Shown piece by piece: positions 1,687 through 25,748 of a stretch of 64,000 nt of DNA. Position 1 is the first letter of the stretch. Each line of letters opens with the position of its first letter. The stretch comes from an uncultured Gammaproteobacteria bacterium (GTDB lineage Bacteria > Patescibacteriota > Patescibacteriia > UBA11705 > DATKZF01). The notes under the pieces were generated by a model. It searched no databases. It had not been told where the DNA came from and saw only the letters and a program-made list of their open reading frames with translations. Both the position numbers and the translations under genes were made by a program. The stretch covers positions 7,331 to 71,330 of the forward strand of contig CAYPKD010000001.1 of assembly GCA_964411255.1 (NCBI GenBank), read 5' to 3'.

Positions 1687-1804
1687 ATTTTGAAAAGTTA
1701 AAGTTAGAGAAGTTAAAAAGGTAAAAATGTTACGAGGTTATGATGTTAAAATATTAAATGGTTATAAAATAATAGTTAAAAAAGGAAAAAATCAAAGGCC
1801 AAAA

Positions 1805-2902
1805 TCAGTAAATCCTGACCGAGGCACGAACCGCGTATTCGTAACTCCGAGCATGCGGACGGACACAATCCAGGTTCAACTGCCTACTGATCCGACCCCA
1901 ACGCGAAAAACAAACGCCGCCCGAGAATTTTAAATACCCTGCTAAATTCCAATTGGCTCTACCACTCCCATCCCAGTCATCGATTACCTTGTTATTCTTC
2001 TGCAAATAACACATGAAATAAGATAGCTCAGCTTCTGGCGTCATGCCGCTCTCTCCCGCGTATTGCTCGTCTTCTTTCATTTTTTCCAAATACTGCTCCG
2101 GCGTTTTATTCGCTTCCAATTGCTTTCTTCCGCCAACTTCTTTTCCCTTGCCTTCTGCTGGCAAATCCGATAAATCTTCTATAAACATTATGTCCCAGCC
2201 ATCTGTCTTTTCTATAATTTCCTTCTTGGTTTTTCCGCCGTGATTTTCCTGATCATACTTTTCTGGAAAATAAACTAAATCGCTATCTTCACCAATATCC
2301 ACTTCTCCCCCTTTATACTCTTCTGCCAGCCAAAAAGGCTGATCTTCATTCAATTCAAGCTCATCTCCGTTTGTCCCCTTTAATTTACCTTGTCTATGTT
2401 TTTTTAATATTAATTCCTTGGCTTTCTCGGCCATATCACTCAATTTCATACCAAACGGCACTAAAAGCAGTTGCGTAAAACCTTGTTCTTTCTTTTTTTC
2501 AACAAATTCTTTCTTGGCCTCAACTCGCTCTAAAATTTCTTCATAAGTCGGGATTCTCCTTGGTTGGCTATTTATATCTATAAATCCCAGTTCTCCGCTT
2601 GGTAATTTTTCAATCAGTCCGTTCTTTTTTAAAGTTTCTATCTGGTCTTCATATTGCTCTTTTAACTCAAAGGTCTTTTCACTTTCTTTTTTTCCCTTGA
2701 TTTTCAATAATTCATTTTTGTAATCTGTATACAAATCTAAAGCTTGCTGCAATTTCCCTGCCTTTTCCGCTGCCACTGCCTTATCTATAATCTTGCCTAA
2801 AAATTCCTTTTCTTCTGGGGTGAGTGGTACACGCTTAACCTCGCCTCGCCGCGGCCTGGCCATTTTTAATTGACTTTCTAATGATTGTGGTTTTTCTGTC
2901 AT
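1805..2902 (-). CDS. Hypothetical protein, paralog A of 28479..29588 (~85% identical over most of its length)
   Basis: 365-aa ORF; near-identical DNA blocks shared with 28700..29560; no recognisable motif; C-terminal ~40 codons GC-rich and diverged. Confidence 0.6.
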   Translation of the reverse strand: MTEKPQSLESQLKMARPRRGEVKRVPLTPEEKEFLGKIIDKAVAAEKAGKLQQALDLYTDYKNELLKIKGKKESEKTFELKEQYEDQIETLKKNGLIEKLPSGELGFIDINSQPRRIPTYEEILERVEAKKEFVEKKKEQGFTQLLLVPFGMKLSDMAEKAKELILKKHRQGKLKGTNGDELELNEDQPFWLAEEYKGGEVDIGEDSDLVYFPEKYDQENHGGKTKKEIIEKTDGWDIMFIEDLSDLPAEGKGKEVGGRKQLEANKTPEQYLEKMKEDEQYAGESGMTPEAELSYFMCYLQKNNKVIDDWDGSGRANWNLAGYLKFSGGVCFSRWGRISRQLNLDCVRPHARSYEYAVRASVRIY

Positions 2903-3128
2903 ACTGTAATGAGTAATGTGTAACGAGTAATTGGTAATTTAGAATTCAGCCGCTGCTTTGGGTTATATAGAACAATTTTGAGATTCCCAATCAAGTTGGG
3001 AATGACGTCCAGGACAGCGGCGAGCAGACATCTCGCATCTCACATTTCTCATTTCTAATTTTGATAACATGCTCCAGGTTATGTGCTCCATGCTCCATGA
3101 TACAGGATACAAGATTCAGGATTCAGGA

Positions 3129-3959
3129 TCATTGATGTAACCCGCTATCATTCCTCAATCTATCAATTTCATCTTTATAATCTTTATAATATTTCATTAA
3201 AAATGCGGTTACTTTTCCAATATTTGCTTTGGAAAAAACTGATTTTTTCAAATCCCATCCTTGGGCAAGGAATTTTTTCCTTTTTGCTTCAAATTTTTTA
3301 TTTTGCAACTGAGATGTGGGCATAGGCATGACCAAAAATTTATCTATCTGGTCATCTGCTTTTAATACCACTCCACCCTCTGGAATAAAATCAAAATTAT
3401 ATTCCTTTTTTAATCGTATTAATTCCTGATTTATTCTTTCTGAAATAATTTCTAAATTTTTATAAAAAGTTTCAATTTGTTTTTTTCCTCTTTTAGAAAA
3501 GATTCCCACTTTCACCTCATACATGCCGGTTATAAAAGCGACATTTTTTTCAGTATCTACCACTACTCCTAAATGATCTGGATTTTTAAACATCTTTCTC
3601 GGATCAAGCCCTAATATTTGAGGTCTTTGTAAACAATTCAATATAAAATTTCCTAAAACACTGTTTTCTTCTTCCCTATTCATCTCCTCATTAACCAATG
3701 ATTCAAATACACAACCGCGAAAAGTAACATATTCTTTGATCTGATTGAAAGAACTTTTTGGCATTTGTGCTAAAAGCTCTTCAGGATTAATATTTTCTAG
3801 AATTTCTTTTTTTCTTTCTAAAATGACAGAGTCAGGAGATTCTGATACTTTTTCACTAATCTCATGCCAGGATGCGTCTTTTACATCTTTAGAAAATTTA
3901 TCATATTCACGCATCCTTTTTGATTTTTGTTGTGGCATTCGAGGAGATGCTTCAAACAT
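3129..3959 (-). CDS. Hypothetical protein (276 aa)
   Basis: Long ORF between pheT and pheS; Lys/Glu-rich; no motif recognised. Confidence 0.5.
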   Translation of the reverse strand: MFEASPRMPQQKSKRMREYDKFSKDVKDASWHEISEKVSESPDSVILERKKEILENINPEELLAQMPKSSFNQIKEYVTFRGCVFESLVNEEMNREEENSVLGNFILNCLQRPQILGLDPRKMFKNPDHLGVVVDTEKNVAFITGMYEVKVGIFSKRGKKQIETFYKNLEIISERINQELIRLKKEYNFDFIPEGGVVLKADDQIDKFLVMPMPTSQLQNKKFEAKRKKFLAQGWDLKKSVFSKANIGKVTAFLMKYYKDYKDEIDRLRNDSGLHQ

Positions 3960-4063
3960 ATTTAATAGTTAGAAAAGTTAAAGAAGTTATGACATTACAA
4001 AGGCTAGAAAAAATTATTTCACTCGTCGCACTTGTCTTGCCTGTCTCACTCGTCTTGCTTTTA

Positions 4064-5092
4064 TCAAAACTGCTTCAAAAATCGTAAGTCAGCACTGTTA
4101 AAAAGTCTGATATCTTCAATTCCATAACGCATCATCACTAACCGAGTTAATCCCAAGCCGAAAGCAAAACCGCTCCATTCATTTGGATCAATCCCGCCAG
4201 CTTTCAAAACATTTGGATGAACCAAACCGCATGGCAAAACTTCAACCCATCCCGTATGCTTGCATACACTGCATCCAGAACCGCTGCAAATCAGGCATTT
4301 CATGTCTAATTCAAATCCTGGTTCAACAAAAGCAAAGAAACCAGGCCTCAATCGAATAGTAACGTCTTTTTTAAAAATACCTTTCATCAGCGTTTTCATT
4401 GTCGCTATCACATTGGCAATGGAAATATCTTTATCAATTACCAAACCTTCAAGCTGATCAAATGTATTTTCATGAGAAGCATCTAAAGCTTCGTATCTAA
4501 AAACTCGTCCAGGAATGATTGCCCGGAGCGGCGCGCCGTATTTTTGCATTGCCCGGACCTGAACAGAAGAAGTATGAGTTCTCAAAACCATTTTATCTTT
4601 GTCATTTTTTATATAAAAAGTATCCTGCATTTCACGAGCCGGATGATCTGCTGGTATATTGACTGCCTGGAAATTAAAATAATCTGATTCTAATTCCGGG
4701 CCGTCTAAAATCATAAAATTTAAACTTTTAAAAATATCCTCTAATTCATACTGAACCAAGGATATTGGGTGTAAATTACCTTTTTCTTTTTCAACTGGCA
4801 AAGAAATATCAATCCATTCCTTTTCTAATTTTCCCTCTACTTGCTTTATTTCCAGTTGCTGACGCTTATTCTCAATTAATTTAACTAAATCCACTTTAAT
4901 CTCATTAGCCAACTGGCCAACTTCTTTTTTCGCCTCTTTTGATAAATCCTTCAAAGATTTTAAAACCTTATTTAGCTCCCCTTCTTTTCTGCCTAAATAT
5001 TTTTTTTCTAAAGTTTGCAGATCAGTTAAATCCGGCACTTTTTCAAGCTCTGTTTTTATTTGCTTTTTAAGTTTTTTTAATTTTTCTTTCAT
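4064..5092 (-). CDS. pheS: Phenylalanine--tRNA ligase alpha subunit
   Basis: Class II aaRS motifs (FRPGFFAFVEPGFELD, GLGLTRLVMM); N-terminal coiled-coil. Confidence 0.9.
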   Translation of the reverse strand: MKEKLKKLKKQIKTELEKVPDLTDLQTLEKKYLGRKEGELNKVLKSLKDLSKEAKKEVGQLANEIKVDLVKLIENKRQQLEIKQVEGKLEKEWIDISLPVEKEKGNLHPISLVQYELEDIFKSLNFMILDGPELESDYFNFQAVNIPADHPAREMQDTFYIKNDKDKMVLRTHTSSVQVRAMQKYGAPLRAIIPGRVFRYEALDASHENTFDQLEGLVIDKDISIANVIATMKTLMKGIFKKDVTIRLRPGFFAFVEPGFELDMKCLICSGSGCSVCKHTGWVEVLPCGLVHPNVLKAGGIDPNEWSGFAFGLGLTRLVMMRYGIEDIRLFNSADLRFLKQF

Positions 5093-5160
5093 ATATTGTT
5101 AGATTAGTAGATTGATAGATTGGTATAAAAAGTAGATCGATAGAACTCTAAAATTATTAC

Positions 5161-6009
5161 TTATTTACCTATTAAACGTTTAGCTTTTTCTAAGGTGGCA
5201 AATTCAGCTTCGTCTAACGGTACTTCAACTGAGGTTGATCCGTTTTCTTTGTTGTCCAGTTTTACATCTATTGACCGTCGCAACACATGCCAGCCAACCA
5301 CATCGCCTTTACCCTGCCGAGTCTTTACTCTGGATCCAACTGGAGGAAATTTTTCAGACAAACTCTCATACAATTCCTTTTCATATGCCAGACAGCATTT
5401 CAATCTGCCGCAAAGACCTGACAGACGCTCTGATCCTCGGTGAGCGACCTGCTGCAAATCTGCCAGCTCTGAAGTTACATTTCCCAATTCCTTTAAAAAG
5501 GTTTTGCAGCAAACCGGCTGCCCGCAACAGCCAACATCACCCACCATCTTTGATTCGTCCCGAATTCCAAGCTGCTGCAATCGGATATTGGTCTTAAATA
5601 TTCTATTTAAGTCTTTTAATAAATCCCTAAAATCAACTCTGCCATCAGCAATAAAAGCAAAAGTTATACGCCCAAAATCAAGATGGATATGCACGTCAAC
5701 CAATTTTATTGGTAATTTATGCTTTTTTATTAATTGTTTGCAAACTCTTATTGCTTCTTTTTTCTTTTCTTTATTTTGAATAATACTATCTAAGTCCTGC
5801 TTGTCAGCTTTTCTCAAAACTTGTTTTATCTCTCCTAATTTTTTTTCATCCTCATCTGTCAATTCCTTTTTCTCCATAACCTTTCCTAAATCTAAACCAT
5901 GCTGTGTTTCTACCACAACATAATCATCAACATTCAGCTCAATCTTATTCGGATCAAAATAATAGACTTTATCCCAGGTGTTAAATTGTATGCCGACTAC
6001 TTTCTTCAT
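5161..6009 (-). CDS. ricT: PSP1 C-terminal domain protein (RicT/YaaT family)
   Basis: Cys cluster GCCGQPVCC ... LKCCLAYE characteristic of PSP1/YaaT. Confidence 0.75.
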   Translation of the reverse strand: MKKVVGIQFNTWDKVYYFDPNKIELNVDDYVVVETQHGLDLGKVMEKKELTDEDEKKLGEIKQVLRKADKQDLDSIIQNKEKKKEAIRVCKQLIKKHKLPIKLVDVHIHLDFGRITFAFIADGRVDFRDLLKDLNRIFKTNIRLQQLGIRDESKMVGDVGCCGQPVCCKTFLKELGNVTSELADLQQVAHRGSERLSGLCGRLKCCLAYEKELYESLSEKFPPVGSRVKTRQGKGDVVGWHVLRRSIDVKLDNKENGSTSVEVPLDEAEFATLEKAKRLIGK

Positions 6010-6110
6010 ATAAATAACCCGAATCCCCGAATGTATCCGAATGCCCCGAATATATATCTATTCATTCGTGTCATTTGGGGTATTCGAATAAAAAATTCGT
6101 ATCATTCGTA

Positions 6111-6698
6111 TTAAACCTCAAATCTTACAAAATTATCAATTTCAATCTTTTCTCCAATTTTAGCAATCTTTTCCTTAATCAAATCTTCAATGGTCAAGTC
6201 TTCGTCTTTTATAAAAGACTGCTTTAACAAACATACTTCCTCATACCATTTACTAAGCTTGCCTTCAACAATTTTATCAATCATATCTTCTGGCTTTGAT
6301 TCAGCTAAAAGCTGTTCCTTGTAAATTTCCTTTTCTTTATTCAAAACTTCTTCTGGTATATCTTCTGGTTTTAAATATAATGGATTAGTAGCGGCAATCT
6401 GCATTGCTAAATCTTTTGCCAGCGCCTGAAACTCTTCATTACGGGCTACAAAATCAGTTTCACAGTCTAATTCTACCATTGAACCTATTTTTTTATTTGG
6501 ATGAATATAAGAGTAAATAATGCCCTCTTTAGTTTCCCGTTCTGCTGACTTTTTTGCAGCCTTAAGCTCACCTTTTTTTCGAAGAACTTCCATTGCTTTA
6601 TCGACATCACCACCTGCTTCTTCTAAAGCATTCCTGCAGTCATTAATACCGCAGCCTGTTTGTTGCCGCAATTTCGCGACTTGTTGTAAGTCAACCAT
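6111..6698 (-). CDS. tsf: Elongation factor Ts (short form)
   Basis: N-terminal UBA-like MVDLQQVAKLRQQTGCGINDCRNALEEAGGDVDKAMEVLRKKG; EF-Ts dimerisation domain. Confidence 0.85.
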   Translation of the reverse strand: MVDLQQVAKLRQQTGCGINDCRNALEEAGGDVDKAMEVLRKKGELKAAKKSAERETKEGIIYSYIHPNKKIGSMVELDCETDFVARNEEFQALAKDLAMQIAATNPLYLKPEDIPEEVLNKEKEIYKEQLLAESKPEDMIDKIVEGKLSKWYEEVCLLKQSFIKDEDLTIEDLIKEKIAKIGEKIEIDNFVRFEV

Positions 6699-7776: not shown

Positions 7777-8772
7777 TTATCCTTTATTAAACTCCCATTT
7801 CCAGCAAGCAGCAGCGCCTAGAGTTTTCTGAGGAAAATCAATCATATTTGAAATAAGTGCTAATCCTGTCTCTGAAAGCCACATTGCCACATGATTTCCT
7901 GGATTTAAAGCCAAATCGCACCAATGAACCCATTTTTCTGCTTTCTTTTCTCCAGTCAATTTAAATATAGTAAATATTGCCTGAGCAAATACAGCTGCAT
8001 TACAATGCTCAGCCCATTCACCCATTGCTCTCGATTGCGCGCAAAAACCTGCATATATTCCTTCTGGCCTAAAATTAATTAAATAATATCCTGCTTGAGG
8101 TTTTTTATTAATATCTTGCTTAAAAACTCTATACCCTGTCTTCAGCCACCAATCGGCCTTTTTATCATTATCAAAATTCGGCGGATTTCTTGGATCATTG
8201 CCAACCATTTTTCTCAGCTCTCGCAAACTCCAATCAAAAATATATACTAATCTCCAATCTGAATCAATTTTATTGCCAGCAGCACCTGATTCAATTGTTC
8301 TGAGAGTATAGTTGATTGGAATCCTGCCTTTTGGCAAATCATGTTCCCACGATTCAGCAGCTTTTTTTGCATTTATAATTTTATCTCTGCCAAGCAATTT
8401 AATAGCTTGCTTCATGGTAACTGGCTTAGCGAACCTATCAAATTGCTCTTGTATCTGCCCTGCTATAACACGAATATCCTCTTCTCTCATTTTTTGCAAA
8501 TATTTTAATTCTAATCCCAATTTTTCAAGAGCAGCTAAAGTTGCGCCTAATTGGCCAAATTCCATAGCTGGAAACAAATCTAAAGATGACTTGACGCTTT
8601 CATTTGCCAGTAAGTGCTGGCGAATAATATCTACCACTTTAAAAGCAAAATCATTATCTGATCTTACTTTGCGCCAATGTTCAAATTCAATGCCATGCCT
8701 TTCAAAAATTTTCAATAACTCTACAACCTGAAAAAGATTGATTGTCCAAAGACCCTGACTGCTTGTGCTCAT
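7777..8772 (-). CDS. Hypothetical protein (331 aa)
   Basis: Long ORF, no recognised motif. Confidence 0.45.
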   Translation of the reverse strand: MSTSSQGLWTINLFQVVELLKIFERHGIEFEHWRKVRSDNDFAFKVVDIIRQHLLANESVKSSLDLFPAMEFGQLGATLAALEKLGLELKYLQKMREEDIRVIAGQIQEQFDRFAKPVTMKQAIKLLGRDKIINAKKAAESWEHDLPKGRIPINYTLRTIESGAAGNKIDSDWRLVYIFDWSLRELRKMVGNDPRNPPNFDNDKKADWWLKTGYRVFKQDINKKPQAGYYLINFRPEGIYAGFCAQSRAMGEWAEHCNAAVFAQAIFTIFKLTGEKKAEKWVHWCDLALNPGNHVAMWLSETGLALISNMIDFPQKTLGAAACWKWEFNKG

Positions 8773-8989
8773 TGCACCCCCCTTTGATTTTCACCTTGTT
8801 GCCCATATGACAACTTTGACAAAAATCAATCTTCTGCCTGCTCCCTGCAAGCATGCTCTTATATTATTCGTCAAAAGAAATAAAGTCAAATAGGAATAAA
8901 TCATCTTGTACTATCTTGTACAATTAATCTCGCCTGTCCTGAGCGAGCGAGTCTTTACCAAGCGAGTCGAAGGGTATATCTTGTAATAC

Positions 8990-9030
8990 TAAAAAAGGAC
9001 GAAAATCTGATTTCGTCCTCAAAGTTTATT
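8990..9030 (-). terminator. Rho-independent terminator downstream of the GC-rich cassette
   Basis: Minus-strand hairpin GGACGAAATCAGATTTCGTCC followed by U-run. Confidence 0.45.
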
Positions 9031-9038
9031 TGCTTATT

Positions 9039-10154
9039 TTAATCAACTCCCAACGGAACTCTGACACTACCCAGAAATCCTTCTCGATCTCCTTCAGTGT
9101 CGCGTTTTGGTCCGTTCAGAATCTCACGAGCAATACCTTCGCTTACAAAATGGCAGACAATGACCGCAGCAGGTTCTTCTTCCCACTCGTCAAGCGACCT
9201 TTTGTCAAGCTCAAGGTCTTGCCTTACCCGAGCGCCAGCAGCCACACCCACTTGATCCATGTGCGCAGCAGATCTGGTGCGCCGAGCTTGGGCAGTAACT
9301 GATTTGGATCGTTTTTTCCCCATTAAAGCATGGCGCCTAACACCGCCAGATGATCTCAGGCCTAACCTGCGAAGCGGTGGACCGCCAAGATATTGCTCCC
9401 CAAAATCACGACTGCCCTTATCTGAGTCACCAAATAGAGAACATTTATATGTTGAATCCACTGAACTGCGAAAACGCGGCATCTCTCGACGCGGTTTTGG
9501 CTCTTTTGATCTGAAAAAGGCAAAGCCGAACGAAGGAACTCTGTCCCCACCCAGCACTGCAATTCCCACATCTTTTTTCAGCATTTCAGCCGTAAAGTAG
9601 AACTGCCTTACCTGGTCACCAACGCGGAATCCATCCCACCAAAGAATGTTTGGATGAGAAACGTAATTCTGCGCAGGCCACTTGAAATTGCATTCAGGGC
9701 AAAAACGCTCGCCTTCAAATGGGACACTGTGAATCGGACACTTTTCCCGATAATGCTCCAGCCGAAGCTTGTCCACTTTTTGGCCAGTAATCGGATTCAT
9801 GCCAGTGGTTGAAGGCACAATGGCTGCGAAAAATCCGCCATCATTATGCCGCCAGTCATACCACATACCAGGACCCTGGCCTTCATCGCTCATTGGCACA
9901 GGAATGAAATAGGCATCGCCTTTTTTGCTCCATTCACTGGGACAACCAGCGTATTTGTGAACTGGGTAAGCAGGGGCTACTACTCCAGGAGGCAGACCAT
10001 GAACCTGGTCTTTTTCTCCTTTTGAAGCCAGCCGCGGGGCAAACATGATCTTTGCATGATAACCTTCAGTTACCAGCTTGCCCGTTGCCTCAGGAAATTC
10101 CTGGCTGAACTGCCTGACCCATTGGATACATTCGTCGTGTGTCTTAAAATCCAT
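9039..10154 (-). CDS. Hypothetical protein, GC-rich (likely horizontally acquired)
   Basis: 371-aa ORF with much higher GC than flanks; GGAGG RBS 6 nt before ATG; CxxC-like CPIHSVPFEGERFCPEC; many spurious overlapping ORFs typical of high-GC coding. Confidence 0.55.
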   Translation of the reverse strand: MDFKTHDECIQWVRQFSQEFPEATGKLVTEGYHAKIMFAPRLASKGEKDQVHGLPPGVVAPAYPVHKYAGCPSEWSKKGDAYFIPVPMSDEGQGPGMWYDWRHNDGGFFAAIVPSTTGMNPITGQKVDKLRLEHYREKCPIHSVPFEGERFCPECNFKWPAQNYVSHPNILWWDGFRVGDQVRQFYFTAEMLKKDVGIAVLGGDRVPSFGFAFFRSKEPKPRREMPRFRSSVDSTYKCSLFGDSDKGSRDFGEQYLGGPPLRRLGLRSSGGVRRHALMGKKRSKSVTAQARRTRSAAHMDQVGVAAGARVRQDLELDKRSLDEWEEEPAAVIVCHFVSEGIAREILNGPKRDTEGDREGFLGSVRVPLGVD

Positions 10155-10209
10155 TGATCCCTCCTTTGGGACTTGGGGCTCCTGACGGAGCCCCAGGCTC
10201 TAGTCTGAA

Positions 10210-11253
10210 CTAGTAACGCTGATGACCGGCTTGATCATCATCCCGATGGAAAGGATCAGCATTCCGGCTGGGAGAGCTTGTCCGGCTGCGCGTTCCGATT
10301 TCCACTCTGAGAGTGGGAAGCTCATCGCGCGCCCTCAGTTCGTCAAACCGAACCTTGCTGCGGCGATAACGCGCGGCCAGCGCATCAAAACCTTTGGAGG
10401 CGATATTGAACAGACGATGCTGCGCATCCACATGTCCAGCATTGGCTTCGCGAGTCATGTTGACCGCAATATACACCAGCTGGCGGGCGGAAAGTTCCAC
10501 CTCGCCCCACTTGATGCCCGTATCGCTGCAAACTCCTGAACGAAGCGGCTTTTCATTGATCGGGCACATATCCACTAGATGGGCAGGATAGTCTCCGATA
10601 GCGAAAAGCTTGTAGGTCACGTCCTGATGGGTATAAAGCCCTTCAGCAACGTCATCAAATCCTTCGTCCAGCTCTTTCATGTACTGGGCAGTTGCTTCCA
10701 CACTGCCATCGCCTGTGGCAGTATCAAAGCAGATCACCAATTTTGTGCCATACGCACCACGCAGCAGACCAACAGCCGGATGCCTGGGCTTGGAGTGCAC
10801 CACCTTGAAATAGGTGGGCAAAAAGATGACAGGATCGATCAGCGAAGTGAGCGTATCGCCCATTCCTCCACCCTGACCTCCCATCAGAGCCAGCAAAGCC
10901 AGCATGTTGTCACCGCCGCTAATGCCCAAAGAGCTAAGAAAGCCCTCAGGCGATTCAGGATCAGCAGGCTTTTCAGCCTTTGACTCCTTGGCAGCAGGTT
11001 TGCTGGTAGAGCCAGCTTCCTCTCGGAACATCTTGGCCATTCGCTGAGCATGCATGGGCTTGAACCCAGCATTCTCAATGGACTCGAAAGTAACGCCGGC
11101 CAGGACTTCGAGACTGTCGCCTCCAGCCTGATCCAGCTTCTTCCACACCTGCAAGGGCGTCATTTTGGCAATCTCTGCTGCCTTTTCGAGCGCCTCCCTG
11201 TAGGCTTTGTCCAATTTTGCAAATGCCTTCTTGGAATAACCGTTCTTAGCCAT
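10210..11253 (-). CDS. Hypothetical protein, GC-rich, co-operonic with 9039..10154
   Basis: 347-aa ORF; 55-bp spacer holds perfect hairpin GGGGCTCC-tgac-GGAGCCCC; no recognised domain. Confidence 0.55.
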   Translation of the reverse strand: MAKNGYSKKAFAKLDKAYREALEKAAEIAKMTPLQVWKKLDQAGGDSLEVLAGVTFESIENAGFKPMHAQRMAKMFREEAGSTSKPAAKESKAEKPADPESPEGFLSSLGISGGDNMLALLALMGGQGGGMGDTLTSLIDPVIFLPTYFKVVHSKPRHPAVGLLRGAYGTKLVICFDTATGDGSVEATAQYMKELDEGFDDVAEGLYTHQDVTYKLFAIGDYPAHLVDMCPINEKPLRSGVCSDTGIKWGEVELSARQLVYIAVNMTREANAGHVDAQHRLFNIASKGFDALAARYRRSKVRFDELRARDELPTLRVEIGTRSRTSSPSRNADPFHRDDDQAGHQRY

Positions 11254-11356
11254 CTCTCTCTTCTCTCTTCTCCCCTTGCTTTCTCAAAAAATCTGCGATT
11301 TGCAAATCTTCTGCCTGATTCATAAAGGGCAATGAAATCAAGACCAGTAACCACTA

Positions 11357-11413
11357 CTGGCAGGAAAATAAAAGGAATAAACCTATAATTTTCACCTTTT
11401 ATTTTCCTGCCAG
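11357..11413. repeat. 19-bp perfect inverted repeat (CTGGCAGGAAAATAAAAGG / CCTTTTATTTTCCTGCCAG) with 19-nt loop
   Basis: Read directly from sequence; lies ~100 bp upstream of the GC-rich cassette start. Confidence 0.7.
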
Positions 11414-11605
11414 AATATGATTAAAATAAACAAAATATCAAAGAACTTCCTACACTTACATTAAATCACGAATAAAACATTATATCAAATATATATTAAT
11501 ATATCAATATTTCTACTAATTTTAGAGAAATTCGGCAATTTGTATTAATTCTTACCTCTTGCTTTTTTCTTGTTTATATAGTATACTATATGAAGTATAT
11601 TAAAT

Positions 11606-11692
11606 GGGTCGGTACCAAAGCGGTCAACTGGGGCAGACTGTAAATCTGCTGGCCTTGTGCCTTCGGTGGTTCGAATCCGCCCCGGCCCACCA
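11606..11692 (+). tRNA. tRNA-Tyr(GTA), class II with long variable arm, CCA encoded
   Basis: Manual cloverleaf: acceptor GGGTCGG/CCGGCCC, anticodon loop CUGUAAA, T-loop GGTTCGAATCC. Confidence 0.85.
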
Positions 11693-11799
11693 TCCTACGC
11701 GCTAGCGAAGGATGTCGTTCGAAGCTTTATGCGAAGAATGACATAATCATATAAACTTATTGTGTGATTGCGTATGCTTCGGATGACGTAGCCATAAAA

Positions 11800-11824
11800 A
11801 CAGCATTACTGCTGTCTTTTTTTA
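11800..11824 (+). terminator. Rho-independent terminator after tRNA-Tyr
   Basis: ACAGCA-ttac-TGCTGT followed by CTTTTTTTT. Confidence 0.5.
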
Positions 11825-14024: not shown

Positions 14025-14969
14025 TCAAATTAAATTTTCAAAGGTCAGTTTATTTGCCTTTGCTTTCATTACGTGAGTAGGTCTACAGCGAAGGTATATT
14101 GATGTCATTTTAATCCCCTTATGCCCTAGTATTTGTTGCAACTCTGAAATATCATAACCTTGATTTATACAATTCATGGCGAACGTATGACGAAACATAT
14201 GGGCATGAAATTTAACACCAGATTCATCATTTAATCTCTTTATCATATGTTTCACTCCATCTTTTGTGAATCTTGAATTATGAGTAGAAGAGATGAAAAA
14301 ATATGGAGAAGTATTCTTAGTTTTTTTCCTCTCTTCTAAATAATCCTTTAATATCTGGAATAATTTAAGATTCATATTAACTATTCTATCATGACCTGTT
14401 TTTGAGGTTTCACCCCTGACAAACACCTCCATTCTATCAAAATCAATATCATCAAGACGTAAACTCACTAATTCATTAAGTCTTAAACCGCAAAAAAGAA
14501 AAGTAGCTACTATGGCATAATTACGTTTTCGCAATAAACTATTCTTCCAATCAATATTGATTAAAACTGCTGAAATAATTTTATCAATATCATCTTTCTT
14601 AATAAATTTTTTATCTAGATACTCAACCTTAGGTGCTTTTATGTACATAAAAGGATTATGGTCAATATATTTTCTTATCCTTAACCAATCAAAAAACCGA
14701 CTCAGTTTACTTCGATAAGTAGCAATCGTACTATTCTTTACTCCGACTTTAATTCCACCCTTTCCTACTAGTCTTTTACGTTTTTGTAAATGTTCAAAAA
14801 ATATATTCATAACCTCAGGTGTTATCTTATCTAAAGATAAATTCGGTATGAGTTCACTTAAAAGCTTAAAAGATGATTCATACCCTCTTATAGTAACTTC
14901 TGAAAGTCCCAAAGAATAACGCGATTCTCTGACAAACTCCTCAAAAAGCTCATTAAGATTCTTTTTCAT
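14025..14969 (-). CDS. Tyrosine recombinase / phage-type integrase
   Basis: C-terminal HxxR...Y motifs (FRHTFAMNCINQGYDISELQQILGHKGIKMTSIYL); next to right junction. Confidence 0.85.
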   Translation of the reverse strand: MKKNLNELFEEFVRESRYSLGLSEVTIRGYESSFKLLSELIPNLSLDKITPEVMNIFFEHLQKRKRLVGKGGIKVGVKNSTIATYRSKLSRFFDWLRIRKYIDHNPFMYIKAPKVEYLDKKFIKKDDIDKIISAVLINIDWKNSLLRKRNYAIVATFLFCGLRLNELVSLRLDDIDFDRMEVFVRGETSKTGHDRIVNMNLKLFQILKDYLEERKKTKNTSPYFFISSTHNSRFTKDGVKHMIKRLNDESGVKFHAHMFRHTFAMNCINQGYDISELQQILGHKGIKMTSIYLRCRPTHVMKAKANKLTFENLI

Positions 14970-15579
14970 TGCTCTCAGTTTCTTGATTTTCTTCTATTTT
15001 CTTTGTTTTAGCAATTATTTGGTCAATTACATCTGATATTTCACTCCTATCTTCTTCGCTCATTTCGTCCAATTGCTCGCTTGCTTTGTCCCACATTGAA
15101 TTTTCATTTCTACTTTTTAACCAATCAGTGATTAAAGTTATTTTGCTAAAATTGTGTTGTCCCATATCCCATCCATTAAAAGACGCATAGTCCTTAAGCA
15201 TCTTCATCAAAATCTTTAAGGCTTTCTCCTTCTCGCCTTTGACCCAAGATTTTGCAATATTTTTCTCACTAATTAAATCTGTCATCTGCTCAATCGTTGT
15301 TTCCATCTGCGCGCCCAGTATCCCGCGCAAGCTTAAGGTATCCTCTATATCCTTTAAGTTATTTGGCTGGTTCTCCTTGTAATAAGAAGAAATGTCCCGC
15401 TCAACTGTGCGAAGAGTTACCTCACCCCAGCCACGATGTTCAGCCATAGTATTTAATCTTTTTTTGACGGTTTCATTAGAAAAACCATTTAATTTAAGCA
15501 TTATCGTGGTATCACGACGTGCTCTTAGCAGAGATGCAGGAATTGATTTCCTGCCTGTTGTCTTTTTGACTTCTGTCAT
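14953..15579 (-). CDS. Hypothetical island protein (208 aa), overlaps integrase start
   Basis: ORF only; acidic C-terminus. Confidence 0.45.
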   Translation of the reverse strand: MTEVKKTTGRKSIPASLLRARRDTTIMLKLNGFSNETVKKRLNTMAEHRGWGEVTLRTVERDISSYYKENQPNNLKDIEDTLSLRGILGAQMETTIEQMTDLISEKNIAKSWVKGEKEKALKILMKMLKDYASFNGWDMGQHNFSKITLITDWLKSRNENSMWDKASEQLDEMSEEDRSEISDVIDQIIAKTKKIEENQETESNEKES

Positions 15580-15851
15580 ACTTTTTTAAGTTAATTTTTA
15601 AATACCGGCGTTTACGACATTCTCTAAATACAAAAAAACACAGAACGGCGATTACAACCGGGCAAAATACAAAAAATTGTATTTTTAGTTTGCCCTAGAT
15701 GGTTATAGTCAAAATTCTGTGCTTTTAAATTAAGCTGTTGGGACTATGTATGTTCTAGTACTTAGATTGTTAATGTATATTTAAATGGTAATATCAATTC
15801 TTAATCATGTCAATACCCCATGTTGATAAGAGTTAACAAAGTTGAAAAAGT

Positions 15852-16610
15852 TTATTTTTCTGTCTTTGTATTTCTAGAATCTACATAACTACAATAATCA
15901 CATTCTGAACCGGCTTTTGGAATTTTCTTACTTCTCAAAGTTTTATGTATATCTTTAATAGTCTGCTCAAGCCATTTATCGCTACCCTTATACGGAATCA
16001 ATACTATTTCAAATTCTAATTTTGCATCAAACGCTTCTCTATCTTTACGGCCATTGCAATAAACAAAATAACCCATATTTGATACTTTCAAGCCATTCAT
16101 CCTTAATAACCACTGATAAATCTCCATTTGCCTTTTATAGCCATCCATCCAAGGCTTATCAAGTTTAGTAACTGGTTCTTGCTTACTGGTGGCCTTATAG
16201 TCAACGACTATGTACTTACCTTTTGAATCCTGCCATAAATCATCAATTGCTCCTGTAATAATAAAATTAGTTGGTTCATGTAAATACTGAACACCCTTAA
16301 AATTTTCTCGCCAAACATCAAGATTATCATGAGCCACTGGTTTTGCATCAACCTTATACTTCTTTAATAATGGATGTTGTTTATTTTTACTTCTATGTTC
16401 ATCGAATTCTTTCTTTAGTAATTCATCAACTGTAGAATTCAATGCAAATGGAAATCCCGGTGGTCTGCCAACTCCCAATTTTCTATCAAGATAAAAACAT
16501 CTTGGACAATCCAAAAACAAATCTATCTTTGAACGAGATATCTTAAACGGCTTTTTTGACTTTGGGTCGTAAAGATTTTTTGTTCGTTGTGAATTGTAAT
16601 ATTGGGACAT
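15852..16610 (-). CDS. PD-(D/E)XK nuclease, Cas4/RecB-like, with Cys clusters
   Basis: GAIDDL ... VVDYK ... QMEIYQW (D-EXK-QxxxY) plus N-terminal DCPRC and C-terminal ECDYC cysteines. Confidence 0.55.
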   Translation of the reverse strand: MSQYYNSQRTKNLYDPKSKKPFKISRSKIDLFLDCPRCFYLDRKLGVGRPPGFPFALNSTVDELLKKEFDEHRSKNKQHPLLKKYKVDAKPVAHDNLDVWRENFKGVQYLHEPTNFIITGAIDDLWQDSKGKYIVVDYKATSKQEPVTKLDKPWMDGYKRQMEIYQWLLRMNGLKVSNMGYFVYCNGRKDREAFDAKLEFEIVLIPYKGSDKWLEQTIKDIHKTLRSKKIPKAGSECDYCSYVDSRNTKTEK

Positions 16611-16614
16611 ATTA

Positions 16615-17463
16615 TTATTGTCTTTCGTTTTTATCTAATGTATTACCCTCTTCATCTTTCCATTCTTTCCACCCATTAGCACGACGTGCAAGAATAACAG
16701 CGGCAGCAGCACTAGGACTATTAAAAATATAGTTCTTTACAAATTTGTAAGAATCCTCGCCTTCTTTTTCTATTACTCCATCCGCTAATAATCTCTCCAC
16801 CATTCCCTCAACCCAAGTACCAGCAGTTTTTGTTAGCTTTCTTCTTGTTATGGAGTCACTATACACAACTAATCCCTCATCTGAATATTTCCCTTTAGCT
16901 TTTGCTGATGGGCCTTTGCAGTAATAAATCTTTTCAGATTCATCAATAATATTAATATCATCAAAAATCGGATATCCTAAAGTAGCTACCAAAAGCTCAA
17001 TACTTCCAAAAAAATCCATAACATCAGCCACATCAGTTTCTGGTAGTTGTGTTTTTGCCGGAATAGTACCATTTACAACATTACATCGATTTAATTTCTG
17101 AGCAATATCATAACAATACCCTTCTAAATATTTCACGTGGGCTTTATTAATTGAGTTATTTGTACTAACAAAACACAATGCAATATTCCAAAAATCTTTA
17201 CCTTCATCTTTGTTATGCTGTAATAATCTTTTATACACCTGTTCTGCCTCTCCAATGTATACATCGGGAATATTTGAATCAATTTCTTTTCCTATCAGAA
17301 AATAAAGCCCAACAGTTTTTAATTCATCGCGACTTGCCGCTTCCTTAATTTTATTTCTTGGCACCAAAATTGCTTTAGCAACACGACCACCAATCTCTGC
17401 AATTTTAACACCAGAGGGGGTGCCGTCAGCTAATAAAATTTTAATTGTTTTAGGATTTTTCAT
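16615..17463 (-). CDS. GIY-YIG nuclease-like N-domain with DUF4357-like C-domain (hsd-associated)
   Basis: GLYFLIGKE...VYIGEAEQVYKRLLQH resembles GIY-YIG; abuts DUF45 gene and Cas4-like gene. Confidence 0.55.
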   Translation of the reverse strand: MKNPKTIKILLADGTPSGVKIAEIGGRVAKAILVPRNKIKEAASRDELKTVGLYFLIGKEIDSNIPDVYIGEAEQVYKRLLQHNKDEGKDFWNIALCFVSTNNSINKAHVKYLEGYCYDIAQKLNRCNVVNGTIPAKTQLPETDVADVMDFFGSIELLVATLGYPIFDDINIIDESEKIYYCKGPSAKAKGKYSDEGLVVYSDSITRRKLTKTAGTWVEGMVERLLADGVIEKEGEDSYKFVKNYIFNSPSAAAAVILARRANGWKEWKDEEGNTLDKNERQ

Positions 17464-17464
17464 A

Positions 17465-17785
17465 TTAATTTATACAATATTTATTTAATCTCAATTCTAA
17501 CTTTTCATATTCACCTAAATACGACGACATTCTGCTTTTCCATAATTTACTATGATTCGGGGTATGAAAATGAAGTAATTCATGAACGATCACATACTCT
17601 CCCAAATCTCGCTCAATTTCTAGGAGCTCAACGTTAAAATTCAGATTTCCATTAGTTGAGCAAGAAGCCCATTTATTTTTCATTGGACGCAAATACAAGC
17701 ACCTTATTTTAATGCCAATCTTATCAGCAAAAAAATAGACACGCTCTTTGAATTCAGCTTTATTTGTCCAACAATTAGATATCAT
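17465..17785 (-). CDS. DUF45/M48-like metal-dependent hydrolase, short (106 aa; YgjP-like, possibly truncated)
   Basis: HELLHFH (HExxH); overlaps hsdR stop, a common hsdR-adjacent partner. Confidence 0.5.
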   Translation of the reverse strand: MISNCWTNKAEFKERVYFFADKIGIKIRCLYLRPMKNKWASCSTNGNLNFNVELLEIERDLGEYVIVHELLHFHTPNHSKLWKSRMSSYLGEYEKLELRLNKYCIN

Positions 17786-20699
17786 AAGCTTTTGAAATTA
17801 GTCTAAATAATTCTTCAGCCACTTTTGTTGCCTTTTCTATATCGTCTTCTTCTGCCAGTATCGCATAATAAATCTCTGCACGAAGTTTTCTCAAAGCTTC
17901 AGTACTTTGTTTCCAAGTTTGATGCTCTACAAATGCCTCCTTAATCTTATCAGTAACAATATCTGGCTGAGGAATCTTATGTTGTTCGATTAATTGATTT
18001 ACAAAATAAGTTAAACTATCAAACCCTTTTTCTGCCTGTTTCTTTCGACGTTCAATATCTTCTTCGTATAACTTTCGAAGTTCTTCCAAGGTTTTCTTTG
18101 TTGTTAATTGCCGAGACTCATATCTTTCCTTAATTTCTTCAGCTCTTTCCAACAATGAAATCAAGAAAAGGTCATCGCTTTGTTCTTCTGCTATTTTCTC
18201 GATGGATTTTATTAAATTGATAATTCTAACATTATCATCTTCATGCTTAGCTTTAATTTTCTCGATTGATTTCTTATTAATTTCGTAAAATTCAGACTGA
18301 GTTTCCAATTTTTCCAAGCCTACATGCTTTTGAACCAGTTGATTTGTTTTTCTCTGAAATTCTCTATCAATGTAAACTTTTTTTGCATAGGCATTTCGAA
18401 CAATTCCATAGATTGCTGATAACGTGCCATAATCATCAATGTATGGTCTCAAAAAAGCATCTGGGGAGATAATCTCATAAAGCATTTCAATCTCTTTATA
18501 GAGTTTGAAAAACTTTTTACGTTTTTCTGCATCACGGAAATGCTCTATTAACTTATCTGTATCCTTATCATCAAACTTTTTAGAAACCAACTTCAAATAT
18601 GAAGCAGCCTCTTTCTTCATCTTTTTTTCAAATTGTTTTTTCAATAATCCTAAGTCTTTAACTACTGCATCTATCTCATCACTATCAAAAGCTAATGCTT
18701 TTTCAACTTTATCGAAAATTCCGATAAAATCTAATACAAAACCATGCGGTTTAAGCATATTATGTTCTTCATTCTCATAAGGCCGATTTACACGCGCAAT
18801 AGCTTGTAAAAGCGTATGATCACGCATTGGTTTATCAAGATACATTGCATACAGAATTGGTGCATCATATCCTGTTAAAAGCTTTTCTGTGACAATAAGA
18901 ATTTTGGGCTGTTCTCCATATTTAGTAAATTTCTTTCTAATCTCTCTTTCCCTTTGTTCATCATGATGAAATTCTTTTAATAATTTAGAATCATTGTTAT
19001 TACCAGTATAAACAACTTCTGAATATTCCTTTGGTAAATATTTATCTAGAGCTTTCTTGTAATATGCACAAGCTTCTCGGTCTACTGCAACAAAAAATGC
19101 TTTATAGCCTAAAGGCTCCACATTTTCTTTGAAATGTTCAGCTGCATATTTTGCCACTGCATCAATTCTTTTTTCTCCTTTTAGAAAATTTTTAATATTA
19201 ACTGCTCTTTCAAGGACTTTATTCAATTCTTCAATCTCTGTTATTCCATGAGCATCTGCAAGTTGCAAAAATTCTTCTTCCAATGTTTCTTTTGGCACTA
19301 AAAGTTTATTTGGAGCAATACTATAAAATAAGGGCAACGTAGTACCGTCTTCGATACTATCAGCAATAGAATACTTATGAAGATAACCCTTTTTATCTTC
19401 AAGACCAAATGTCTTAAATGTTCCTTTTCCATATACAGTCTTATCAATAGGTGTCCCAGTGAATCCTATAAAAGATGAGTTCGGTAATCCTGCCATTAAG
19501 AAATTCCCTAAATCACCTTGAGTAGTCCTATGCGCTTCATCAATAAGCACAAAAATATTTTCTCGAGTATTGATATCTGCAGGCATTTTCTGAAATTTGT
19601 GAATTGTCGTTACAATAATTCCTCGATAATCATCTTTAAGTAATTTATTAAGCTTTCGAATAGAAGTTGCATGTTCAACATTATTCAATCCAACCGAGCT
19701 TAAATTTGTTATCATTTGCTGCTCTAGTTCATTACGATCAATCATAAGCAAAATAGTAGGTTTATCTGATTCTGGAGCTTTGAATAATAATTCGGCGACT
19801 TTAATCATTGTATAAGTTTTTCCTGAACCTTGAGTATGCCAAACCAAACCACGTCTTTTGGTTTTATTATGAGCGCGTTTAATAACTTCTTCAACTGCCT
19901 CTTGTTGGTGTTGCCTAAGTATGTATTTATTCAACTCTTCATCTTTCTCTGCAAACATTATGTATTTACCCAACACATCCAATATCTGACGTTTATCGCA
20001 AAATGTTTTAATTTTAGATTCTAACTTACCGATTTCTTTTTCTTTCCAATTAAAAATATTCCTTCTAATTAAATTCCATGTTACCCCATAGCTAAAACCA
20101 ATACTTTCCGTTGCTGTAAATATTTGCTCTGGTACAAATAACTCAGGTGTTTCATTATGATATCGACGTAATTGGTCGATTCCAATTGCAACCGCCTCGT
20201 CCTTGGTTGCGTTTTTACATTCAATAACAAGAACTGGAATACCATTAATTAAAAAAACAACATCCTCTCTGTTAGCATACTTGCCATTAAAATAATAAAA
20301 TTCCTCAGTCACTTCAAACACATTATTACTGAACTTATCGTAATCAATCAGATTAAGATTTAATTCTCTATTCTCACCTTCGTGAAAAAATGTTTTGTCT
20401 CCTCTTAAATATTGTACAAATTCACGATTACCATAGATATCTGGAGTTAATGCTGAAAAACGACGAATAAGGTCATCAATATTATTATGAAAATGAGGAT
20501 TAAATTTATTAACTTTTTCATGAAGGATACCCTGAAAATAAAGAGAAGCAGTTTCAGCTCTGTCGCGAGGTGAAACTCCTTGGGGGTCAAAACCACGGCG
20601 TTCTTCAGCCTCTTTTTGGCCAACATACTTCCATCCAATTTCTTGGGCGTATTTAAGTATCCTAGCTTGTACTGATTTTTGCTCTGTTGGTTTAGACAT
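17775..20699 (-). CDS. hsdR: Type I restriction enzyme R subunit
   Basis: 974 aa; SF2 helicase motifs TQGSGKT, DEAH (VLIDEAHRTTQG). Confidence 0.9.
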   Translation of the reverse strand: MSKPTEQKSVQARILKYAQEIGWKYVGQKEAEERRGFDPQGVSPRDRAETASLYFQGILHEKVNKFNPHFHNNIDDLIRRFSALTPDIYGNREFVQYLRGDKTFFHEGENRELNLNLIDYDKFSNNVFEVTEEFYYFNGKYANREDVVFLINGIPVLVIECKNATKDEAVAIGIDQLRRYHNETPELFVPEQIFTATESIGFSYGVTWNLIRRNIFNWKEKEIGKLESKIKTFCDKRQILDVLGKYIMFAEKDEELNKYILRQHQQEAVEEVIKRAHNKTKRRGLVWHTQGSGKTYTMIKVAELLFKAPESDKPTILLMIDRNELEQQMITNLSSVGLNNVEHATSIRKLNKLLKDDYRGIIVTTIHKFQKMPADINTRENIFVLIDEAHRTTQGDLGNFLMAGLPNSSFIGFTGTPIDKTVYGKGTFKTFGLEDKKGYLHKYSIADSIEDGTTLPLFYSIAPNKLLVPKETLEEEFLQLADAHGITEIEELNKVLERAVNIKNFLKGEKRIDAVAKYAAEHFKENVEPLGYKAFFVAVDREACAYYKKALDKYLPKEYSEVVYTGNNNDSKLLKEFHHDEQREREIRKKFTKYGEQPKILIVTEKLLTGYDAPILYAMYLDKPMRDHTLLQAIARVNRPYENEEHNMLKPHGFVLDFIGIFDKVEKALAFDSDEIDAVVKDLGLLKKQFEKKMKKEAASYLKLVSKKFDDKDTDKLIEHFRDAEKRKKFFKLYKEIEMLYEIISPDAFLRPYIDDYGTLSAIYGIVRNAYAKKVYIDREFQRKTNQLVQKHVGLEKLETQSEFYEINKKSIEKIKAKHEDDNVRIINLIKSIEKIAEEQSDDLFLISLLERAEEIKERYESRQLTTKKTLEELRKLYEEDIERRKKQAEKGFDSLTYFVNQLIEQHKIPQPDIVTDKIKEAFVEHQTWKQSTEALRKLRAEIYYAILAEEDDIEKATKVAEELFRLISKAYDI

Positions 20700-23488: not shown

Positions 23489-23499
23489 AAAATTAAAAA

Positions 23500-23676
23500 T
23501 TAATTCTGACTCTCCTGAATAAACTTCTGGAGGTCTTTTTCACTAATTCGCCATTGACCAATCTTAGATGCCTTTAAGCGTCCTGATTCAATATACCGTG
23601 TTACAGACCTTTCGCTTACTCTAAGAATCTCTGCCACTTCTTTTAATGTTAGTAATTTTTCTTTAGTCATAAGCAT
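23500..23676 (-). CDS. Excisionase/AlpA-like helix-turn-helix DNA-binding protein (58 aa)
   Basis: Manual translation MLMTKEKLLTLKEVAEILRVSERSVTRYIESGRLKASKIGQWRISEKDLQKFIQESQN; below ORF-track size cutoff. Confidence 0.55.
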   Translation of the reverse strand: MLMTKEKLLTLKEVAEILRVSERSVTRYIESGRLKASKIGQWRISEKDLQKFIQESQN

Positions 23677-23767
23677 TTGTTATTACTAATATTGTAACTA
23701 ATTAAAAGCGATGTGTCAAAATTTGTCATGTTTTGACATATAGGTTTAATTTGAGTAAAGTAATGGT

Positions 23768-25656: not shown

Positions 25657-25672
25657 TTGCAGTATTTCTAAA

Positions 25673-25748
25673 TGGAGCCGTCTTCGGGACTTGAACCCGA
25701 GACCCCCACCTTACCATGGTGGTGCTCTACCAGCTGAGCTAAGACGGC
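25673..25748 (-). tRNA. tRNA-Thr(GGT), intact, island-borne
   Basis: Reverse strand GCCGTCTTAGCTCAGCTGGTAGAGCACCACCATGGTAAGGTGGGGGTCTCGGGTTCAAGTCCCGAAGACGGCTCCA folds to canonical cloverleaf. Confidence 0.85.

Follow-up and report, generated by a model that had tools for sequence, protein, structure and literature searches.

A GC-rich gene pair beside tRNA-Tyr in a low-GC genome of candidate phyla radiation type: a probable laterally acquired copy of a two-gene module centered on huge phages

Horizontally acquired islets linked to tRNA genes are recognized by a deviant composition, by presence in one relative and absence from another, and by sister lineages that carry different cargo at the same place, with an integrase, a duplicated att site, or direct repeats at the boundary. 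Prophage remnants are recognized by hallmark genes (terminase, portal, and capsid). In a further group of systems, namely, the pap/fim pilin operons, the puf operon, and transcripts stabilized by repetitive extragenic palindromic (REP) elements, a stem-loop between two cistrons sets the ratio of the two products. We analyzed a 64,000-nucleotide (nt) stretch of bacterial DNA (referred to here as the window), the gene content of which (rpsB, a short 195-amino-acid [aa] tsf, pheS, and pgi) points to a bacterium of the candidate phyla radiation (CPR) type. Close to its tRNA-Tyr gene lies a block that is rich in guanine plus cytosine (GC) and consists of two minus-strand genes, A (positions 10210 to 11253; 347 aa) and B (9039 to 10154; 371 aa), separated by a 55-nt spacer. 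We consider this block to be probably a laterally acquired and functional operon of a previously undescribed two-gene module (the A-B module), of which the main reservoir is huge phages. The block resembles tRNA-linked islets in its deviant composition, its presence or absence between relatives, and the differing cargo of a sister lineage. It differs from them in that it has no integrase, att duplication, or direct repeats, its boundary being instead a 17-nt imperfect inverted repeat, and in that the nearby tRNA block is inverted rather than duplicated. Unlike a prophage remnant, it has no hallmark genes, its neighbors being pgi and tRNA-Tyr on one side and an orphan gene followed by rpsB and tsf on the other.

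The GC content of the window is 35.3%, while that of A is 54.1% and that of B is 49.7%. Measured over 200-nt intervals, GC content was 45 to 57% across about 9040 to 11260 and 21 to 40% on either side. All three codon positions are raised (first/second/third, 0.61/0.44/0.58 for A and 0.61/0.46/0.43 for B) relative to the flanking genes (roughly 0.37 to 0.51/0.25 to 0.37/0.21 to 0.31). Comparison with the 42 other open reading frames (ORFs) of the window (mean GC at third codon positions [GC3], 0.271; standard deviation [SD], 0.042) identified both genes as strong outliers at synonymous sites, i.e., A (GC3, 0.575) by +7.2 SD and B (GC3, 0.427) by +3.7 SD. Compared with those of the same ORFs, their products contain more Ala, Gly, Arg, and Pro and less Lys, Asn, and Ile, and spurious plus-strand ORFs overlap both genes. 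These observations agree with the initial annotation, which had reported a GC content far above the window average, dense spurious overlapping ORFs, and Ala/Arg/Gly-rich products. It had also reported an intergenic hairpin, a 19-bp inverted repeat, a terminator, and a nearby tRNA-Tyr, each of which we found in place (coordinates are given below), and its statement that neither protein fits a recognized family held in Pfam, NCBIfam, PHROGs, PADLOC, and PDB.

The sharp GC boundaries coincide with the coding sequences, a pattern that might also arise if foreign high-GC DNA had been joined into a low-GC contig during assembly or binning. We dismiss such an artifact as exceedingly improbable because the identical arrangement of A, B, and flanks occurs on 15 contigs obtained from four sources (NCBI, JGI, ENA, and Logan assemblies) and different samples. 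Moreover, a second lineage (locus L001 and its duplicate, L074) carries the cassette at the same, syntenic locus, with 85 to 95% identity in both coding and noncoding sequence.

A and B represent separate, widespread protein families, the genes for which are neighbors in nearly all phage and CPR genomes that carry the two. An exhaustive HMMER search retrieved at least 295 representatives of the A family (E ≤ 1e-3; 50% clustering), while a word-seeded search retrieved a single relative; thus, the A family is sizeable and faster evolving. For B, at least 112 homolog clusters, all unannotated, were present in a database of 5.8 billion clusters. A lies directly or closely upstream of B on 34 of 35 viral contigs from IMG/VR (20 to 470 kb), and the same-strand order, A then B, was also observed at nine cellular loci (L001 to L006, L064, L069, and L070); at locus L065 the order is reversed, B preceding a variant of A (A', described below). 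The viral loci encode the large terminase subunit, NAD-dependent DNA ligase, and ParB-like, VWA, DUF2201, and Ro60-like proteins, together with NAD/ADP-ribose and RNA repair genes, in the dense unidirectional packing that is typical of huge phages. Phages from the same samples as the window (L029 and L030) carry the module. Two copies with archaeal labels, L004 (a contig of an Altiarchaeales metagenome-assembled genome [MAG]) and P0090 (labeled Nanoarchaeia), fall inside viral clades in the trees of both proteins; these probably derive from phage contigs that were sorted into archaeal MAGs and not from archaeal chromosomes.

Scans of A, B, and ORF331 (the orphan gene between B and rpsB) against Pfam, NCBIfam, and PHROGs yielded nothing usable, and PADLOC-DB yielded 0 matches at an E value of ≤1. 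No A-B match was detected by tblastn among GenBank phages and PLSDB plasmids, and no description matching the family was found in literature searches on huge phages and CPR bacteria and on P22.2 or in one preprint on huge-phage folds. The acquisition of a small islet at a variable tRNA locus is an ordinary event; the point of interest is its cargo, i.e., two unannotated families with hundreds of members that are strictly linked in huge phages with GC contents of 25 to 50%. The pair offers a concrete way into two questions, namely, which host functions huge phages depend on and how genes pass between phages and CPR bacteria.

The evidence supports the conclusion that the pair is foreign to its host genome, on the basis of the behavior of the phage copies, the position of B in its tree, an empty site in a relative, and the differing chromosomal sites of the module. 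The GC3 values of A and B at the 35 viral loci differed from those of the phage's own genes by no more than about 2.5 SD, and mostly by no more than 1.5 SD, and in a phage with 25% GC the GC3 of B was 0.13. Because the phage copies track the GC3 of their phages, the A and B proteins do not impose a high GC content. In the B tree (the A and B trees were built by neighbor joining, without support values), the window and L001 nest within a clade of copies from CPR genomes of the Uhrbacteria type with 60 to 70% GC (L002, L064, L065, L069, and L070), and the viral sequences form the sister clade to that CPR clade. Chromosomal CPR copies of B were 47 to 59% identical to the B of the window; for phage copies, the identity over the best tblastn segment was 29 to 46%, most being at 30 to 38% and five reaching 39 to 46%.

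The empty site was found at locus L066, which stems from one sample that also holds the window's organism and is 82.5% identical to the window in rpsB-tsf at the nucleotide level (L001 is 85.0% identical to the window and 84.9% identical to L066 in this region). The tRNA-Tyr locus of L066 reads pgi, a 203-aa helix-turn-helix (HTH) gene, tRNA-Tyr, a 97-aa GIY-YIG gene, ORF337, rpsB, and tsf, with neither A nor B. The window and L066 become homologous again near position 8852 on one flank and from the tRNA block (11597 to 11742) on the other, so that a variable interval of about 2.7 kb in the window corresponds to one of about 0.5 kb in L066. High-GC homologs kept as core genes across related low-GC genomes, the pattern that the initial annotation had set against acquisition, are not what we observed. 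A metagenome scan for further relatives of the rpsB locus yielded the two known ones and no others. Finally, the module occupies differing chromosomal sites across CPR genomes (L002/L064/L065, L005, L006, and L069), with conserved synteny among L002, L064, and L065, where it is accompanied by glycosyltransferase, murA, and rplI genes. The source of the pair was more likely a CPR bacterium of high GC content, or an element that circulates among such hosts, than a phage itself.

A number of observations weigh against our interpretation. A close donor is unsampled, the best B match outside the lineage being 59% identical over 59% of the protein. The GC3 of A and B exceeds that of neighboring genes in most other cellular CPR copies, high-GC genomes included, by 15 points in L002, 20 points in L064, 19 to 28 points in L005 (39.5% GC over the locus; flanking genes, 34 to 36%), and 38 points for a solo A gene in L071. 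The excess is modest (10 to 20 points) in genomes with 60 to 65% GC, and there is none at L069, a locus with 70% GC. It reflects either repeated transfers from home lineages of very high GC or a family-specific pressure acting in cells, and such pressure, be it codon bias tied to expression or biased gene conversion, could be contributing at the window's locus as well. Because the excess recurs in cellular copies, composition alone is weaker evidence than first appears, and this recurrence offers a small test case in which amelioration can be set against biased gene conversion or codon selection in genomes that are streamlined. The trees of A and B are also incongruent, the A of the window grouping with a different A subfamily than that of the Uhrbacteria copies; this fits swapping of domains or partners, or weak resolution of the neighbor-joining trees. 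Within the block and at its edges, we found no att site, tRNA-Tyr fragment, or mobility gene, and no conserved direct repeat. The functional hypothesis presented below draws on architecture and conservation, with no structure or family match.

The strongest argument for an old linkage comes from L070, a distant locus with 60% GC, in which A'-B lies directly upstream of rpsB-tsf (2648 to 6427), a neighborhood shared with the window. The B proteins of the two loci are 47% identical and their S2 proteins are 46% identical, i.e., their divergences are comparable, and this arrangement could reflect old linkage rather than insertion. Together with the recurrent GC3 excess, which appears whatever the GC of the genome, and with the age of the cassette and the purifying selection on it (see below), this arrangement fits a native pair that has been inherited vertically. 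On that account, the linkage of A-B to rpsB-tsf would date back to an old CPR ancestor, L066 would have lost the pair, and the high GC content would be maintained by a gene-specific force (selection on codons for high expression, mRNA structure, or gene conversion biased toward GC). We nevertheless judge vertical descent to be unlikely. The GC3 excess of 16 to 30 points is far beyond the spread of the 42 native ORFs, rpsB and tsf included (genome GC3, 0.27), and the phage copies show no GC constraint. The chromosomal sites differ among L002/L064/L065 (by glycosyltransferase genes), L005, L006, and L069, and the pair is absent from L066. In addition, the low-GC ORF331 separates B from rpsB, and it is linked to rpsB in L066 without A-B. 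ORF331 (7777 to 8772; 331 aa) has a host-like GC content of 36.7% and only 4 homolog clusters in the 5.8-billion-cluster database. Since its product is 57% identical in L066, compared with 86% for the adjacent S2, it is either fast evolving or replaced.

Lateral acquisition, the reading that we prefer, does not imply that the event was recent. Between the window and L001, amino acid identity is 91% for A and 88% for B, and the ratio of nonsynonymous (dN) to synonymous (dS) substitution rates is 0.12 and 0.22, respectively. The dS values of A and B (0.38 to 0.40) are within the range of those of the flanking genes (0.28 to 0.66; about 0.6 for rpsB and tsf). The ancestor shared by the window and L001 lineages thus already carried the pair, which has been kept under purifying selection. 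The initial annotation had argued for recent horizontal acquisition; we retain the acquisition and abandon "recent," which is too strong for a pair that is ancestral to two lineages and under selection, with a dS of about 0.4 and a closest outside sequence at 59% identity. Its suggestion of phage or plasmid cargo was correct insofar as the family is centered on huge phages, while the copy in the window groups with chromosomal CPR copies and has no match in PLSDB or among GenBank phages.

The tRNA-Tyr gene (anticodon GTA; 11606 to 11692, plus strand; 87 nt with a long variable arm), as predicted by ARAGORN, lies outside the GC-rich block, about 350 bp from the pair. A run of Rfam at the gathering threshold listed tRNA-Thr and tRNA-Gln only. 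The tRNA block (11597 to 11742), which comprises the tRNA and some 50 nt downstream of it, is inverted with respect to the pgi and rpsB flanks when compared with positions 819 to 961 of L066, where tRNA-Tyr is co-oriented with its neighbors and directly follows the 203-aa gene. Thus, the locus has been rearranged. The L066 cargo at this site consists of the 203-aa protein with an N-terminal HTH (214 to 825) and the 97-aa GIY-YIG nuclease (1087 to 1380); since this is a different small cargo, the locus behaves as a hot spot for small insertions. GC-rich paired hairpin repeats (e.g., CATCCTACGCGCTAGCGAAGGATG and TCGTTCGAAGCTTTATGCGAAGAATGA) follow tRNA-Tyr at 11693 to 11800 of the window, and the hairpin unit occurs twice in L066 (913 to 1065), where it adjoins the GIY-YIG gene. 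A 13-nt direct repeat, AATCTTCTGCCTG (at 8828 and 11305), was considered as an insertion mark and was treated as a chance match, given that it is not conserved in L001 or L066.

The proximity of tRNA-Tyr and its inverted block, the overwhelmingly phage-borne distribution of the family, the same-sample phages that carry the module, and a tyrosine recombinase gene at 14025 to 14969 would together fit the remnant of a prophage. In this scenario, a phage, either huge or temperate, would have inserted at tRNA-Tyr by means of the nearby recombinase and then decayed to A-B. The adjacency to tRNA-Tyr noted in the initial annotation is real, and a search for the associated att site, a check that it had suggested, found none; likewise, the locus contains no other phage genes and no tRNA fragment, and A, B, and ORF331 have no PHROG match. 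The recombinase is low in GC and Xer-like, lies 2.6 kb away across pgi as the nearest such gene, and forms part of a separate, type I restriction-modification island with tRNA-Thr at its end. Since, in addition, the B of the window groups with chromosomal CPR copies and not with viral ones, and A and B are under purifying selection rather than decaying, we consider a decayed prophage quite improbable. An integron cassette was also rejected: the recombinase scored 75 bits against an integron-integrase cutoff of 265, and the 19-bp repeat, which is perfect, AT rich, and located 5' of the genes, is unlike attC.

Under the preferred reading, i.e., acquisition of an intact bicistronic operon that is predicted to be expressed, the pair is a cellular copy of the phage-centered module. 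It sits in the variable locus between tRNA-Tyr and the orphan gene upstream of rpsB-tsf, and its GC3 would have ameliorated only in part. The cassette, framed by the 17-nt inverted repeat, would have landed downstream of an AT-rich promoter, from which a single mRNA with a structured leader would be transcribed. The candidate promoter (11479 to 11507, minus strand) is a consensus match of the sigma-70 type (TTGATA, 17 nt, and TG-TATAAT) at 11 of 12 positions with an extended -10 element; it sits in an AT-rich divergent region that the operon and tRNA-Tyr share and that is 95% identical in L001. The ribosome-binding sites of the operon are intact, that of B being AGGAGG.

The outer arm of the framing repeat is at 11418 to 11434, and the inner arm, which overlaps the B stop codon, is at 9029 to 9045. 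The arms are complementary at 16 of 17 positions, a level reached by 0 of 200 Markov-shuffled flank pairs, and L001 has the same G-to-A change in both arms. No further perfect or one-mismatch copy occurs within the window. The repeat encloses the leader hairpin, A, and B, and leaves the predicted promoter outside; it may mark a nonautonomous cassette, as a scar or a terminal repeat, or may instead serve for 5'-3' pairing of the mRNA.

Within the 5' untranslated region of A, the leader hairpin consists of a perfect 19-bp inverted repeat with a 19-nt spacer (11357 to 11375 and 11395 to 11413, minus strand), 104 to 160 nt upstream of the A start codon. The repeat is unique in the window (0.06 chance matches expected), and the fold of the leader has a z score of -4.7 relative to shuffled sequences. 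Both arms are identical in L001, and the loop is altered. A second small leader hairpin, GCCAGTAGTGGTTACTGGT (11343 to 11361, minus strand), is also conserved in L001. Downstream of B, a terminator-like hairpin (8985 to 9020, minus strand) with a 10-bp stem followed by the T-run TTTTTTAGTATT is identical in L001. The interval between this terminator and the ORF331 promoter region contains three direct copies of ATCTTGTAC(T/A)A (8903 to 8988) and a small GC-rich hairpin (8929 to 8947).

Between the genes, a perfect GC-rich stem-loop, GGGGCTCC-tgac-GGAGCCCC (10174 to 10195, minus strand), begins 15 nt past the A stop codon and precedes the B ribosome-binding site. Its folding energy in context is -32 kcal/mol (z score, -3.7). 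The stem is identical in the window and L001, while the loop (GTCA versus AGCC) and the flanks have changed. Strong perfect hairpins of unrelated sequence follow the A stop codon in L002, L064, L070, L069, and L005, and a weak one follows it in L006. Because hairpins of differing sequence recur at the same place, the hairpin is a positional, and not a sequence, feature of cellular A-B operons. As judged from the stems that are kept and the two hairpin loops that vary, the leader, intercistronic, and terminator elements appear to behave as functional structures. The intercistronic hairpin may tune the A:B ratio, either by protecting 3' ends or by partial termination. It resembles the stem-loops of the pap/fim, puf, and REP-stabilized operons in being a stable hairpin between the first stop codon and the second ribosome-binding site. 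It differs from them in that, in the window, the stem is not followed by a U-run.

The predicted structure of A (mean predicted local distance difference test [pLDDT] score, 84) suggests a helical head of about 70 residues resembling SAM and HhH domains, which a Gly/Met-rich linker joins to an alpha/beta domain, with a disordered tail at the C terminus. The head superposes on SAM domains and on the (HhH)2 domains of the NusA acidic repeats (target-normalized template modeling [TM] score, about 0.6; root mean square deviation [rmsd], 2.2 to 4 Å), with a Foldseek probability of up to 0.92 and a weak SAM profile match (E = 0.04). This likeness to the NusA C-terminal acidic repeats and the Eph receptor SAM domains concerns the first 70 or so residues; the E values are not significant, and a single family member touches Pfam HHH_5. 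The remaining 270 residues, including the alpha/beta domain, had no match. When 36 A and 38 B members were scanned individually against curated families (Pfam-A, NCBIfam, and PHROGs), only isolated single-member matches were obtained (E ≥ 3.6e-4). The tail carries a motif composed of LPxL[KR], 8 to 15 aa, DP[FML], 3 to 12 aa, and a basic-x-aromatic C terminus, to which the tail of the window's A, ELPTLRVEIGTRSRTSSPSRNADPFHRDDDQAGHQRY, conforms. Almost all of the 50-odd A sequences listed, phage and cellular, have this motif; the exceptions are three A' variants without LPxL[KR] and a few tails without the terminal aromatic residue. In the A' variants (L065, L069, and L070), the head and the DPF/aromatic tail are kept, and the central domain is replaced by a Cys-containing one.

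For B, the model (pLDDT, 81; predicted TM score, 0.77) suggests a beta-sandwich N-terminal domain (residues ~27 to 219), a disordered basic linker (236 to 278), and an alpha-beta-beta-alpha C-terminal domain. Four residues, C139, H142, C152, and C155, are invariant across 105 B sequences (C-x2-H-x9-C-x2-C) and probably form a zinc site resembling a zinc ribbon. Few other polar residues are invariant, which argues for a binding or structural role and not an obvious enzyme. A Foldseek search of PDB returned nothing significant; the top entry, a p53/p73-like zinc beta-sandwich, was rejected (E = 0.044; probability, 0.08; TM score, 0.11 to 0.16). Similarly, a weak match, in a PDB profile search, of the C-terminal domain to the LigA-domain precursor (SonA) of a ribosomally synthesized and posttranslationally modified peptide (E = 0.05, and 0.075 with a 105-sequence profile) was judged to be due to chance.

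The sole fold-level matches of the B model were uncharacterized viral proteins in BFVD (Foldseek E values, 1e-6 to 3e-4; probability, 0.98 to 1.0; query-normalized TM score, up to 0.44). These come from giant viruses, baculoviruses, and a marine phage, and they include the Harvfovirus protein A0A3G5A0P2, the "SHOCT domain" protein A0A8D9FQF2 of an uncultured marine phage, CnmeGV P22.2, and proteins of Marseillevirus, Moumouvirus, Edafosvirus, and Klosneuvirus. With identities of 8 to 14%, large rmsd values, and moderate TM scores, these matches do not establish homology, and they give no mechanism.

Because a conserved head and a conserved tail flank a swappable core beside an invariant partner gene, we suggest, with low confidence, that A is an adaptor, with a SAM/HhH-like head and a C-terminal docking tail that is kept when the central domain is swapped. 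Equally speculatively, B would be its zinc-binding beta-sandwich partner, and the two might form a cytoplasmic complex that huge phages need in infection and that some CPR bacteria have co-opted. The broader idea that this complex constitutes a new functional system, i.e., a near-universal two-gene module in a large group of huge phages, is tentative, and we hold it to be possible but doubtful. If true, CPR bacteria have captured the module repeatedly and exchange it, leaving GC-rich islets in low-GC genomes, and the module would mark either a novel interface between phage and host or cellular machinery of phage origin within the poorly understood CPR radiation.

More-distant solo paralogs of B, without A, were observed in L008, L009, L010 (about 5.6 to 8.9 kb), and L017. 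There, B is the last in a conserved row of four genes, after an unknown gene of 325 to 330 aa, riboflavin synthase, and lumazine synthase. Of the four genomes, three are Uhrbacteria MAGs with about 50% GC, and one is a MAG with 45% GC labeled Gammaproteobacteria. The 325- to 330-aa gene was tried as a divergent A and rejected, as it gave no hidden Markov model signal with filters off. In L071 (35.6% GC; CPR-like), the solo A homolog P0115 (54.5% GC; GC3, 0.58) is followed by a GC-rich 103-aa ORF, and an unrelated GC-rich gene pair (45% and 52.5% GC) lies about 4 kb away (loci, 1670 to 3806 and 8001 to 9384). The pair at 1670 to 3806 was rejected as a divergent A-B (hhalign probability, <1%).

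Beyond pgi, the window contains a low-GC, defense-type island (14025 to 25748) between two tyrosine recombinases, the second of which abuts tRNA-Thr; no link between its recombinase and the A-B cassette was found. The island consists, in order, of the Xer-like recombinase (14025 to 14969), a 208-aa ORF, a PD-(D/E)XK/Cas4-like nuclease (15852 to 16610), a DUF4357 protein, HsdR, HsdS, and HsdM (17775 to 23488), a DUF4238 protein, the second recombinase (24745 to 25656), and tRNA-Thr (25673 to 25748).

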